Shown here piece by piece: positions 38 to 49,449 of a stretch of DNA of 64,000 nt (position 1 is its first letter; the number at the start of each line of letters is the position of its first letter). A model generated the notes under the pieces. That model ran no database searches, was not told the origin of the DNA, and saw only the letters and a program-made list of their open reading frames with translations. Origin of the DNA: a virus (Duplodnaviria > Caudoviricetes); the IMG/VR virus record IMGVR_UViG_3300028914_000064, positions 32,001 through 96,000 of that record. One strand, given 5' to 3'. Both the position numbers and the translations under genes were made by a program.

Positions 38-835
38 ATGAGTATCAACATCGCTATTGCAAATCAAAAAGGGGGAGTAGGAAAAACAACGACTACAATT
101 ATCTTAGCTGATGCGTTAAAGCATTTTGGGTTAAAGGTACTTGCAATCGATCTAGATCCACAGTGTAATACGACGGACACATATGGAGCAAAAATGGATG
201 ATGTAAACACTATTTATGATGTTCTTGATGGAGAATGTAAAACGGAAGATGCAATCCAAAAATTAGTACTTGGAGACATTATTCCGGGTGATAAACTTCT
301 CGCGGACAATCTAGACCATTTTAATGCTAAGATGTCACGTGAGTTACTTCTAAAAAAGAAATTAAAGGAAGTAGAAAAAAAATATGATTTTGTTATTATT
401 GACACTCCTCCTACACTAGGTTTATATATGATAAATGCACTTGCTGCTTCAAGTGGCTGTGTTATTCCTTTAAAGGCAGAGCGTTATTCCGTTAGTGGTC
501 TTGGAGAACTTTTTTCAACAATAAAGAACATAAAAGAAGCTGGTGTTAATGAAGACCTTCGTGTCTATGGTACACTGATAACTAATTTTGATACAAGAAA
601 TGATCTTGATAGAAGACTTAAAATGGAGCTTCCTGAAACAGCACTTCAGTATAATTTTAGAAATTTCAATTCCTATATACGAATCTGTCAAGATATCAAG
701 AAATCACAAAATCTTGATTTTGAGGAAAATGAGACTATAAATCGTTCTTTGTTTGATAATTTCCCAAACAGTAATGCGGCTGAAGATTATGTTAGATTTA
801 CAAAAGAGTTGTTGGAGGTAATCAAAAATGGCTAA
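38..835 (+). CDS. parA: ParA/Soj family partition ATPase
   Basis: Deviant Walker A NQKGGVGKTT, IDLDPQCN, Walker B IIDTPP; SD AAGGAG upstream. Confidence 0.95.
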   Translation: MSINIAIANQKGGVGKTTTTIILADALKHFGLKVLAIDLDPQCNTTDTYGAKMDDVNTIYDVLDGECKTEDAIQKLVLGDIIPGDKLLADNLDHFNAKMSRELLLKKKLKEVEKKYDFVIIDTPPTLGLYMINALAASSGCVIPLKAERYSVSGLGELFSTIKNIKEAGVNEDLRVYGTLITNFDTRNDLDRRLKMELPETALQYNFRNFNSYIRICQDIKKSQNLDFEENETINRSLFDNFPNSNAAEDYVRFTKELLEVIKNG

Positions 836-2597: not shown

Positions 2598-3839
2598 ATG
2601 GGGCGAGAAAAGACACAAGATAGTATCACTGAAATTCTTTCAAGTAAAAAATATACAAAATCTAATGCTTTGGTCAATGCGAAAGGGAAGGCTGGATTGT
2701 TAGCTGAAAAACTTTTTGCTGTAGGAATTCAACGAGCAGTTGAAGATGAAAAGACCGGCATTCTTACAACAACAATCCGAGGAATAGAACTAAAGAAAAT
2801 ATTTCAAACTAATAGAGGATCTTTTTATGCTGATGTCAGTGCTTTAGTAGATCCTCCGACGAATGATTCTCCCTCTTTACTTGATTGGAGAATCATCTAT
2901 AAGGACGATAACTCACAAACTATTGAAGCAATGAATGTTATTACGGATTGCTCTTTTAAAAAAGGTGTTTTCGAGATAAGATTTAATAGCAAGATTACTC
3001 CACAAGTAAGAAGATTACAAGCGAATTATACTGTTTTTTCACTTGCAGATACGATGCCATTAAAAAGTATCTATTCGTTTAAGCTGTATGAAATTTTAAA
3101 GTCTGAATATGATAAACAGGACTACGTAGCAAAGAAAGAAGAATCTTGGCAGCCTAATGCTGTTTATATAATGGACATGCATATAGTAGACTTAAAATTA
3201 AGAGTAGGAGTTATTGATAGTTCATGGAGTAGTGAGATATCAGAAGAACTTAGAAAATTAGAGCCAAATTATGATATTATTGAAAAGATAGTAGACGAAC
3301 AGCTAAAGAACGAAGGAGTTATTGATAAAAACAAGAAAACTTATAAAAGTTATAAGAGGATAGATAATTTTAAAAAAAATGTTCTTGATAGAGCAAGAGA
3401 TGAATTAAAAGAAAAAACGTCCATTAAGTTTGAATATAAAAATTTAACAGGTGGACCTGGAGGAAAAATAAATGGCATAAGATTTTTTATTTCTCGGAAC
3501 ACAAAAGACTCTGACAATATTGAAATTAGTGAGAATCCGAAAGAAGCTTTATCGAAAGAAGAAAAATTTGAAATACTTGATTCTATTGCTGATATTATAG
3601 GAGACTCATTCTCATACAAAGAAATCAAAATAATTGCTGAAAAATCTGAATATAATATTGAGAAAGTTAAAAGCGCTTATAATGTTATGAGACAAAGTAA
3701 AACAAGAATAGATAACCCAATAGCATGGATGATAAGTGCTATAGAAAATAATTATCAGAACAAAAATAATAGTTTCAGCAATTTTAAGCAGAACACTTAT
3801 GATTTTGCAAAATTGGAAGAGCAGCTTTTGGAAAATTAA
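2598..3839 (+). CDS. Rep_3 (RepB/RepA-type) plasmid replication initiator
   Basis: KSNALVNA, LKSIYSFKLYEILKS, FKKNVLDRARDEL, GGKINGIRF motifs; C-terminal FSNFKQNTYDFAKLEEQLL tail typical of clostridial replication proteins. Confidence 0.9.
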   Translation: MGREKTQDSITEILSSKKYTKSNALVNAKGKAGLLAEKLFAVGIQRAVEDEKTGILTTTIRGIELKKIFQTNRGSFYADVSALVDPPTNDSPSLLDWRIIYKDDNSQTIEAMNVITDCSFKKGVFEIRFNSKITPQVRRLQANYTVFSLADTMPLKSIYSFKLYEILKSEYDKQDYVAKKEESWQPNAVYIMDMHIVDLKLRVGVIDSSWSSEISEELRKLEPNYDIIEKIVDEQLKNEGVIDKNKKTYKSYKRIDNFKKNVLDRARDELKEKTSIKFEYKNLTGGPGGKINGIRFFISRNTKDSDNIEISENPKEALSKEEKFEILDSIADIIGDSFSYKEIKIIAEKSEYNIEKVKSAYNVMRQSKTRIDNPIAWMISAIENNYQNKNNSFSNFKQNTYDFAKLEEQLLEN

Positions 3840-8458: not shown

Positions 8459-8825
8459 ATGATAAAAAATGATAGTTATGAGAATTGGCTTTTAAATACA
8501 GAACATGGAATATATGATTGTACGAATAATGGTAAGTGTAGCGGATGTGGCGACTGTTGTAGCAATATTTTACCTATAACAAAAAAAGAGATTAATGAAA
8601 TAAAGAAATATATAAAAGATTATGGTATTAAAAAACAGGAACATAGATCCTTCTTTTTAAGTGCAGACACGATTGATAAAGTGTACGATTTATCCAGTTC
8701 GTCCTTCTATTTGTAGAATCTTTTTATGTTCTAACGCTGCAAAAAGAGAAATTCATTTAAGTGATGCAGGGAGAAAAAACGTTAATATGAATGAAGTGTT
8801 TTTTGTTGGGAGGATAAATAAATGA
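8459..8825 (+). pseudogene. YkgJ/CxxCxxCC Fe-S/Zn cluster protein, frameshifted by an apparent internal deletion
   Basis: CSGCGDCC in one frame; CTIYPVRPSICR in another frame from about 8682 to TGA 8823-8825; the usual intervening CPF motif is missing. Confidence 0.7.
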
Positions 8826-9127
8826 CATTTGATGAATTTATGGCAAAATATGAAGATCGTTTAAAAGATATATGCAAACCCAAACCAGCAAGTGTTTTTT
8901 ATGAATTGGATGAAAAAGGAGGTATGCATACTAGAATGAAAGGAAGAAATATAGATATTCAATTTGTAGTAGCTATAATAATAAAAGACCTTGTAAAAGA
9001 TTGTAATTTAACTTATGATGAGTATTTTGGTTTGGTAAAAGAATTATCTCGTCATATGAATGATGAAAAAAAAGAAGAGAATAATTCAACTTTTAATAAA
9101 ATGTTTAAAGATTTTTTCGCAAAATAG
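8822..9127 (+). CDS. Hypothetical protein, paralog of 10710..11078
   Basis: Shared KPA...Y..DE.G......KGRN and FN..FKD motifs; SD GGGAGG. Confidence 0.75.
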   Translation: MTFDEFMAKYEDRLKDICKPKPASVFYELDEKGGMHTRMKGRNIDIQFVVAIIIKDLVKDCNLTYDEYFGLVKELSRHMNDEKKEENNSTFNKMFKDFFAK

Positions 9128-9437
9128 CAAAATCAATGCCGAGTGTATCGGCTGGAACACAACGGCTAAAGATGTAACATCTTATTCCTTCACAACTTCA
9201 ACCACTTGGGCGGCGCCGTATAATGGATATTTTTGCATCCAAGTAGCTTCAAACACCGACACTCAACATGATGTTAGTATAACTTGCGGTAATAAACAGG
9301 TAGCGGGTCAATATTTCGTATATAAATATCAAAAACTGATGGCATATCTGCCATTAAGAAAAGGAACGGGGCTAGTAATCACAGGTAATGTCGATATTCT
9401 TATGATAACTTGTATGACGGGCGTTTTTAATCCGTAA
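9126..9437 (+). pseudogene. Startless cassette A, adhesin/tail-fibre C-terminal domain-like
   Basis: SKINAE...WAAPYNGYF...LPLRKG...FNP; no SD or start codon of its own. Confidence 0.6.
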
Positions 9438-9439
9438 AA

Positions 9440-9733
9440 TCAATAACTGAATGGATAAAAGATAGCGGTCGCACCAGAGTCAATTCTTGTAGTCTTAAGC
9501 TTGGTTCCTTTTTTAACGTATATGGCAGAACCTGAACCTAAGTTATTAACTGGCGTTACTTCAAAAACGTTAAACATAAAGGCACTATTTTTATCATAAA
9601 ATTCAACTACCACAGCCGTACCAGCGCCAGCGCCTCCCGCTATTTTCACATAGCCATCAGAAGTTGTTGTATACAGAACGTTTAAATCAAGGGCTACCGC
9701 GGTTCCTTTCGCTCCAGCGTTTGCCAATTTGCT
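9440..9733 (-). pseudogene. Startless cassette B, adhesin/tail-fibre C-terminal domain-like
   Basis: SKLANA...YTTTSDGYV...IYVKKG...FYPF; no SD. Confidence 0.6.
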
Positions 9734-10069
9734 AAATGACGAAATAAAAAGAGTATGTGATAAATGGAAAAATTTATATCAATGACTTCAAATAAATATA
9801 AAAATATTGACAAAGTTATTCCAAGTATTTACGGAAAAAAGAGACAAAAGATTTTTTATTTAAGTTTAACAACATATAGTTTAATTCCGGTTGATAATAA
9901 AATATCTTATATTACAGGAAAGGTGATTAAATTTAGAGATATATAGTACTTTCATATAAAGAAATTTTTTATAAGTACTCTTCTCTCCTCTTTTCTATTT
10001 TTATAACAAAGAAAGTAAAAAATAGGCTTATAGTATACTGTTACGCTATAAAAAATGGGAGGTAAAAAA

Positions 10070-10709: not shown

Positions 10710-11078
10710 ATGAAGGATGATTTTGAATTTGAATTAATAAAAGCTGAATTACTTGATGCTTTTTTTGAACAACTTACTAATGTTAAACCAGCTAAAATAG
10801 AATATAGTGTAGATGAACATGGTGTAGTTAAAGGGTATATAAAAGGAAGAAATGCTGAATTACTGCTACTTGTGGCGACAATTATTAGCGATAGAATAAA
10901 AAAAATAACGGAAGATATTGAGGGTTTTTCTGATACATATTTAAAACTTTTAAAAGAAATTATTTGTGTGCTTCAAGATTATAGTATGACTTTTGAAAAA
11001 TCTAATGAACAAAATAAAAAGAATGATGAGAATTCATTAAAAAAATTCAATGATATTTTTAAGGACTTGGATTTATAA
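10710..11078 (+). CDS. Hypothetical protein, paralog of 8822..9127
   Basis: SD GGAGG; shared motifs. Confidence 0.75.
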   Translation: MKDDFEFELIKAELLDAFFEQLTNVKPAKIEYSVDEHGVVKGYIKGRNAELLLLVATIISDRIKKITEDIEGFSDTYLKLLKEIICVLQDYSMTFEKSNEQNKKNDENSLKKFNDIFKDLDL

Positions 11079-48438: not shown

Positions 48439-49449
48439 TCATAGCTCTAAAAGTTGTGCTGCTTTGTCTCTTTCATTATTTTCCGTTGTGATATAACGCT
48501 GTGTTGTTTCTGCTTTTTCATGATCTAACGCACGTCTTACAAATTCAATATCACCTGTCTGTTCATATAATATACTTGCAACTCCTCCTCTTATCTTGTG
48601 AGGGCTCACATGCTTTCCAAGTGCTTCTAAGAAATATTTGTCAACAACTCTTGAGATTCCTTTACAACTAAGACGTTCTCCTTGATAGTTTAAGAATAGA
48701 GCATCACAAGGATATTTTTCAAAATACTTTCTATATTTTATCCATTTCTCTAATGTTTCTACTGTGCTATCGGTCAATGGATAAATCTGAAATTTTCCAC
48801 CTTTACCTTTATCAATTGTTACTAAGGTTTTATTTTCAAAATCGATATCACTAATATTAATAATTCTCAAAGCAGTCTCTCTCATTCCGGTTTCCATAAG
48901 TATCTTTAATATAAGAGAATTCCTATATCTATAAACTGGATCTGGTTCCATATATGCTTTATTGAGGACTAACTTAAAATCTTTCTTCTCAAGTTTTATC
49001 CTTTCCTTTTTAATTCTTTCCAGGTCATGACTCTTAGGTCTATCTATATCTATCATATAGTTCCTTTCTATATAATTTCTGATAGTAAGGAACCCAAGGA
49101 AATTTTTTAAAGCTGCATATATATTTTGTTGATAGGAACCGGATGTCTCTTTTACTGTTCCATCCATCAAAGTTTTTGTTCCAATTGAGATATAATATTT
49201 TGTTACTGATTGGGCATTGATTTCAGAACAATCAACTTCTTTTACATTGCTATTTATTGAAGAAAGAAATTTCCCTATCTTTCTAACAAAATCTCGTCTT
49301 GTTGAAGCAGTCTTCTTTGATGCATATAAATTATCATGCCATTCTATAACATAGGATGGCATGTTGTTTAATAAGTTATCTATACTTTTGGTTATCTGTA
49401 ATTCATTTTCTAATCTTGCTGGCATAAAATCATTCCTCCATTTGATCAA
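48439..49449 (-). CDS. Tyrosine recombinase, YopP-like by position
   Basis: TGMRE, DKG, HKIR, LDH, TTQRY: full R-K-H-R-H-Y set. Confidence 0.9.
   Translation of the reverse strand: MIKWRNDFMPARLENELQITKSIDNLLNNMPSYVIEWHDNLYASKKTASTRRDFVRKIGKFLSSINSNVKEVDCSEINAQSVTKYYISIGTKTLMDGTVKETSGSYQQNIYAALKNFLGFLTIRNYIERNYMIDIDRPKSHDLERIKKERIKLEKKDFKLVLNKAYMEPDPVYRYRNSLILKILMETGMRETALRIINISDIDFENKTLVTIDKGKGGKFQIYPLTDSTVETLEKWIKYRKYFEKYPCDALFLNYQGERLSCKGISRVVDKYFLEALGKHVSPHKIRGGVASILYEQTGDIEFVRRALDHEKAETTQRYITTENNERDKAAQLLEL

Follow-up and report, generated by a model that had tools for sequence, protein, structure and literature searches.

The R64/IncI shufflon, in which the recombinase Rci acts at sfx sites to vary the pilV tips, joins its segments to the constant gene by inversion only; to our knowledge, neither a remote segment nor exchange between replicons has been described for R64. 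It resembles the locus analyzed here in its tyrosine recombinase, in asymmetric sites with one side and the core conserved, and in the two tail-to-tail, start-less ORFs per segment that continue a constant gene in frame once joined to it. It differs in that a conjugative pilus adhesin is diversified, all segments are contiguous, and the site sequence is unrelated. Invertible tail-fibre segments of the phages and elements Mu, P1, e14, and p15B are switched by Gin, Cin, Pin, and Min. These have in common with the present case a host-range switch by inversion of the fibre C-terminus; Min handles multiple cassettes, and P1 and p15B are phage-plasmids, as is the element studied here. However, the enzymes are serine invertases that work with an enhancer and Fis, and the invertible DNA adjoins the invertase gene.

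Receptor-binding-protein shufflons operated by tyrosine recombinases are an already known kind of system, described as Rin in prophages of Bifidobacterium breve and Bifidobacterium longum (Mavrich et al. 2018, PMC6109161); the rix site of Rin comprises 11 bp (TTCCCTAACCC, PMC6109161). The system reported here appears to work like Rin, a likeness that does not imply orthology. Both have a phage-encoded, Xer-like tyrosine recombinase without arm-binding domain, one constant start of a receptor-binding protein, and several variable C-terminal cassettes that lack a start and are each preceded by a short repeated site, and in both inversion isomers are seen by genome comparison (here in a sister phage and at the main locus). 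New with respect to Rin are a different site, CGY-N4-TAGCAA instead of the 11-bp rix, and a pair-wise layout of tail-to-tail cassettes with the recombinase between pairs. The carriers are a low-GC phage-plasmid and other phages rather than actinobacterial prophages. Comparison of the available contigs further points to two new features, namely a conserved satellite locus approximately 40 kb away in the phage-plasmid (39-41 kb separate one pair from the recombinase and the constant gene) and clean comparative evidence for the exchange of pairs between unrelated phages.

The DNA stretch analyzed (64,000 nucleotides, referred to as the window) represents positions 32001-96000 of a 126-kb virus record. 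It contains an island of 630 bp (9115-9744) with a GC content of 39.7%, compared with 30.5% for the whole window and 24-29% for the flanks, in line with the higher-GC island of the preliminary description. The island holds two spare, start-less fibre-tip ORFs arranged tail to tail, A on the plus and B on the minus strand. The features of the locus are as follows.
8822-9127, plus strand: unrelated gene (101 aa), its last codons and stop supplied by the left site
9109-9135, plus strand: left site, with a T-rich outer arm up to CGC (9118-9120), the variable bases AAAA (9121-9124), the core TAGCAA (9125-9130), and an inner arm lying in A
9117/9126 (entry) to 9437, plus strand: cassette A, a start-less fibre-tip domain of ~104 aa with its stop codon at 9435-9437
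9440-9739 (open frame; 9440-9733 as cassette), minus strand: cassette B, a start-less fibre-tip domain of ~97 aa
9722-9750, minus strand: right site, with the core TAGCAA (9734-9729), the variable bases CATT (9738-9735), CGT (9741-9739), and a T-rich outer arm

The codon phase relative to the site is the same for entry into A and into B, so that the start-less tail-to-tail frames entered in the same frame were correctly recognized from the start. In contrast, the two domains had also been taken as homologous, a claim that had to be abandoned: homology between A and B was undetectable in sequence, with a BLASTP E value of 35 and a profile-profile probability of 0.4%, and their only common traits are a KGT-type motif and a predicted small all-beta sandwich. 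Structure prediction, which had been proposed as a check, gave an AF2 model with an eight-strand beta sandwich for A (pLDDT 89.6) and a beta sandwich for B (pLDDT 81). Fold searches with both models yielded weak C1q/TNF/CBM/cupin-like beta-sandwich matches (E > 1e-3), which are compatible with a predicted receptor-binding head without proving one. Searches with tblastn using A and B gave no match in GenBank phages, scans of close relatives in IMG/VR with A, B, and both flanking genes found nothing, and neither did a profile scan of the genome contigs with the B alignment.

The assignment of both ORFs as fibre tips is based on their counterparts in other phages. Cassette B shares 81% amino acid sequence identity with the C-terminal 99 residues of the 410-aa fibre P0003 (Phage_fiber_rpt, PF22337) encoded on contig L009; a search with B for longer proteins retrieved P0003 only. 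Directly behind the P0003 gene, L009 carries a homologue of A, inverted and start-less, with one site inside the fibre gene at the junction of constant and variable parts and a second one at the far end of A. At the nucleotide level, A matches the inverted cassettes that follow the fibre genes on L009 and L010 with 86-88% identity, and dN/dS values versus these copies are 0.09-0.20. Members of the A family are found at the C-terminal end of fibres measuring 218, 304, and 687 aa and as many short start-less ORFs. The window island aligns with the invertible pair in L009, L010, and L011 at 84-85% identity only across 9112-9747, thus from outer arm to outer arm. These matches bear out the earlier view of the cassettes as adhesin-like fibre C-termini of a tyrosine-recombinase shufflon. 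L009 and L010 are temperate siphophage-like contigs with the A/B pair behind the fibre gene and a lambda-type integrase; an Xer-like recombinase was not found within 9 kb of their pair, which may depend on a recombinase encoded elsewhere or supplied in trans.

The exact sequence TTTCG-N5-TAGCAAA occurs just twice in the window and nowhere else in the 126-kb record, at 9115-9131 (plus strand) and 9728-9744 (minus strand), confirming a site at the start of each cassette; the right site is inverted relative to the left one. An alignment of 22 sites from seven loci revealed an invariant pattern composed of CG(C/T, rarely G), four mostly A/T variable bases, and TAGCAA, and the reading frame after the site was identical in all aligned cassettes. 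The refined motif CGY-NANN-TAGCAA was found six times in the 126-kb record versus 0.22 expected occurrences. The window sites deviate slightly from the consensus by a CGT and, in the B site, by a C as the first variable base. Both of their outer arms are of the non-coding 'distal' type, and on the plus strand the central four variable bases read AAAT at both sites. The 5-bp sequence AAAGA is present just outside both outer arms (9107-9111 and 9748-9752) and resembles a target duplication; it could be a chance occurrence in AT-rich DNA, and other pairs have nothing similar. Transposition of the DDE type, suggested by the terminal inverted repeats and AAAGA, was rejected because no transposase is linked to the pairs and other copies lack duplications. 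On contig L022, which encodes a recombinase with 76% identity, all three sites (3309, 3880, and 4996) have TAGTAA replacing TAGCAA; this concerted change fits a putative requirement for core identity between partner sites.

A fibre gene or a cognate recombinase does not adjoin the island, as stated in the preliminary description. The pair is not a stray one, as it had been called there, and the refuting case named in that description, with no cognate tail gene or sites elsewhere, did not apply: the same genome holds the recombinase, the constant fibre start, and at least four further sites outside the window. The genome-wide search for sites and for a fibre gene ending at one, which had been suggested there, identified six sites, with the constant ORF ending at site 125967 (genome coordinates).
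Genome 487 (minus), 1633 (plus), 2159 (minus), 41118 (plus), 41741 (minus), and 125967 (plus): the six sites of the refined-motif scan
Genome 561-1547: Xer-like tyrosine recombinase, 328 aa, PF13495/SAM_4 and PF00589
Genome 125570-125968: constant fibre start, 133 aa, ending ...TQ just before site 125967
Genome 125570-126091 plus 1-2170 (L008:9570-10091 and L005:1-2170): main shufflon, consisting of the constant part, a site, cassette D, inverted F and E, the recombinase, a site with a six-codon mini-cassette, and inverted C

The recombinase is composed of a core-binding and a catalytic domain without an arm-binding domain; its best NCBIfam matches were XerA/XerC/XerD-like, all under the equivalog cut-offs. 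It is flanked by sites 487 and 1633 and lies 39.6 kb upstream of the A/B pair. The last ORF of the record runs through the 133 constant residues and site 125967 into a cassette; sites 487 and 2159 head further start-less cassettes, as does a degenerate site near genome position 140; at least five further cassettes lie at the joined record ends. In a 126,578-bp contig from another assembly, the structural genes are followed by a 247-aa fibre, 685 nt, the recombinase, a cassette, and the tape-measure gene. This order implies that the record ends join with ~346 nt missing, and the distance from the constant gene to the A/B pair is ~41 kb across the join. As the record is broken inside the main shufflon, its label 'linear, 67% complete' probably understates a circularly permuted genome. 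A serine recombinase (PF00239) was absent from the 126-kb record, whereas control genomes responded.

The element is assigned as a phage-plasmid because a ParA-type ATPase (window 38-835) and a Rep_3 initiator (window 2598-3839) adjoin phage structural modules. Precomputed Pfam matches to YomU, YomW, YonB, and YonD on sister contigs point to a virion module of the SPbeta type. A second Xer-like tyrosine recombinase is encoded at window 48439-49449 (minus strand). It was discarded as the shufflon enzyme, being only 27% identical to the recombinase at genome 561-1547, and may serve the phage-plasmid in dimer resolution or integration. Right after the recombinase gene of the shufflon, a terminator-like hairpin is present (L005:1548-1600, L018:6990-7040, and L022:4915-4960), the pairing of which is kept by compensatory changes between G000/L018 and L022. 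With this hairpin, the cassette pair downstream of the recombinase is probably transcriptionally silent. An Rfam scan beside the main locus retrieved no structured RNA.

Several comparisons indicate that switching takes place at such loci. Contig L018, from a complete 83-kb phage with a 96% identical recombinase, shows the layout without interruption: fibre, site, pair, site, small gene, recombinase, terminator, site, second pair, and site. L023 and L018 represent one phage (99.96-100% identity), with both pairs inverted and overlaps of 20-23 bp at the four sites. In the G000 lineage, L027 and L028 have a 100% identical recombinase segment with cassette E on its other side, and a 100% identical constant start bears two different tips (P0020 and P0021) with the breakpoint just after the site. 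By these comparisons, the shufflon is active in the sister phage and at the main locus of this lineage. For the remote pair, an inverted isomer was not found; other assemblies with DNA or gene calls keep the same arrangement, and a pattern scan of IMG/VR for the inverted left junction gave no match, a result of no weight with relatives being scarce in IMG/VR. A junction of the constant start with A or B was found neither among assemblies nor among database proteins; the two tips on record for the constant start of this phage are neither A nor B. An exact-protein look-up of cassette E gave no record.

The stop codon of the gene upstream of the island (8822-9127) is the TAG of the invariant core (9125-9127), and the gene is read one frame off from cassette A, so that the left site indeed overlaps the stop of an unrelated, out-of-frame gene as described previously. 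On the related contig L029, a 90% identical homologue of the protein likewise ends at the core TAG (L029:4304-4306). With the stop codon provided by the core, the gene end is kept whichever cassette sits behind the site. The region 10710-11078 encodes a paralogue whose end lies within one residue of that of the 8822-9127 protein; both are small acidic proteins of unknown function in the early/plasmid region. An exact-protein look-up of the downstream 139-aa gene gave no record. Directly before the site, a T TTT TTC run (9112-9118) is present in the zero frame of the upstream gene; a slip of +1 at this run would reach the frame of cassette A, and a slip of -1 stops early. Expression in place by a +1 shift, giving the 101-aa protein fused to A, was unsupported, as was expression of A from an ATG at 9060 inside the upstream gene. 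In-place expression was rejected because the protein encoded upstream bears no resemblance to a fibre, the -1 frame soon meets a stop, and the site by itself accounts for the frame offset.

The remote locus itself is variable among relatives. L029 is 94.4% identical to the window over 2.4 kb up to position 9130 and then continues with a different in-frame cassette; the upstream gene is shared and ends at the site there too, and the core is preceded by the canonical AAAT. Since a canonical site is thus followed by another in-frame cassette, the remote locus appears to persist and to turn over its cassettes, which agrees with the dispersed reservoir proposed initially. Contig L026 ends at position 9123 inside the left site, the 40.9-kb contig of L029 ends 116 nt past the site, and a 39.9-kb ENA contig apparently ends at the remote locus too. 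Such contig ends are expected if the sequence behind the site varies within populations. The window junctions were recovered at 100% identity in independent assemblies (L025, L026, and a 2.2-kb ENA contig spanning both flanks).

That pairs move between phages is indicated by two cases. The flanks of L011 are of the L018 type (100% and 96.8% identity), and the pair between its two sites is 99.7% identical to that of L010, whose flanks are unrelated; when L011, L018, and L010 are compared, the point of exchange falls in TAGCAA or immediately beside it. Cassette B of the window is 99.3% identical to the recombinase-adjacent cassette of L022 (two differences in 282 nt); the L022 recombinase is only 76% identical, and the near-identity begins right after the core (TAGCAA versus TAGTAA). 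L022 and the G000-type contig L027 were obtained from one metagenome. Taken at the sequence level, these data indicate that pairs are replaced between phages as site-bounded units with breakpoints in the sites. The notion of the pair as a transferable, site-bounded unit was thereby substantiated by the 99.7% identical pairs of L011 and L010 in unrelated flanks. In recombinase-mediated cassette exchange (Cre/FLP), a two-site segment is swapped between molecules by two conservative crossovers. By analogy only, such an exchange leaves identical cassettes between unrelated flanks and puts the breakpoints inside the sites, as for L011/L010/L018 and for the window and L022; we know of cassette exchange as a laboratory technique and of no described natural phage process of this kind. 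Integron cassettes are likewise an analogy only, as they are whole genes moving as single-site circles, whereas the units found here are start-less gene ends between two inverted sites.

We consider it probable that the island serves a Rin-like tail-fibre shufflon of this phage-plasmid as a satellite cassette store, filled by site-specific exchange of pairs. In the proposed mechanism, the Xer-type recombinase (genome 561-1547) would act on the short asymmetric sites CGY-four A/T-TAGCAA, each of them set so that a start-less cassette would be read in frame after the 133-aa constant fibre start. The A/B pair would have come from a co-resident phage and entered a pre-existing two-site remote locus through two conservative site-specific crossovers. 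Expression of A or B could follow once the pair is inverted and a ~41-kb inversion has joined the constant site (plus) to the remote minus-strand site; the upstream gene would tolerate these events with its stop codon being the TAG of the invariant core. The ~41-kb inversion would cover tail, lysis, and plasmid genes and was never observed, and the arrival of the first cassette at the remote locus is left unexplained by the satellite-store reading. A wider proposal, which we put forward tentatively and with more doubt than conviction, is a communal dispersed shufflon in which tips 39-41 kb away are used by inverting about a third of the circular genome, and co-resident unrelated phages trade pairs by double crossover. 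If true, there would be a communal pool of receptor-binding domains that resembles an integron pool but is made of gene ends.

The strongest alternative, although unlikely in our assessment, is that the pair is an inert hitch-hiker left by a past recombination accident or exchange, with sites intact because of its young age and never used for switching. This would agree with the pair never being seen joined to the constant start, with the identical arrangement in several assemblies, and with the unusual bases in the B site; the 99.3% identity to the B cassette of L022 implies a very recent arrival, so that intact frames prove little. However, the canonical site followed by a different in-frame cassette at the same locus of the 94% identical relative, the activity of the recombinase in this lineage, and the breaking of contigs at the remote locus argue against an inert hitch-hiker.

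The preliminary description had instead proposed that the pair excises as a circle between its sites and integrates at a palindromic TTTCG-N-CGAAA, leaving mismatched coupling sequences in a Tn916-like manner. In favor of such an event, no homology to donor-type pairs extends beyond the outer arm on either side, and both window outer arms are of the 'distal' type. Weak points in its favor are AAAGA, which stands on both sides of the element, and the AAAT at both sites on the plus strand, which is as for attL and attR of a single integration, albeit with a coincidence of about 1 in 16 for A/T-only bases. Yet TAGCAA, presumably the exchanged core, is asymmetric, and the sites are inverted, so that recombination between them inverts and cannot excise. 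The TAGTAA shared by all three L022 sites is as expected if core identity is required, and all natural events found were inversions or two-site replacements. L029 has a full site with another cassette rather than the empty palindromic site predicted for relatives, and neither a circle junction nor an empty site was found in assembled sequences. Given the asymmetric pattern CGY...TAGCAA, invariant in 22 inspected sites, we regard the circle model as very improbable. A single large inversion splitting a contiguous shufflon was also dismissed, as the hybrid site expected beyond the pair after such an event was absent within 300 bp. An assembly chimera, with the higher-GC 630 bp spliced into the contig by the assembler, would account for the GC jump at the boundaries and for the 99.3% identical cassette in another phage from the same kind of sample, but is hardly credible, as the junctions are 100% identical in independent assemblies from other samples (L025, L026, and the 2.2-kb ENA contig) and the flanks share only ~10-20 bp with the donors, too little to mislead an assembler twice.

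Changes in phage host range are usually ascribed to point mutation, homologous mosaicism, or local inversion switches. The data presented suggest that some of the tips available to a tyrosine-recombinase switch can be stored at a great distance from the fibre gene. They further suggest that the sites of the switch double as exchange points through which tips pass between phages with hardly any change (99.3-99.7% identity in contexts that are otherwise unrelated or 76% identical). If borne out, this would explain why assemblies of such phages break at these loci, and it would provide a concrete mechanism for the rapid horizontal spread of receptor-binding domains among the phages of a community.
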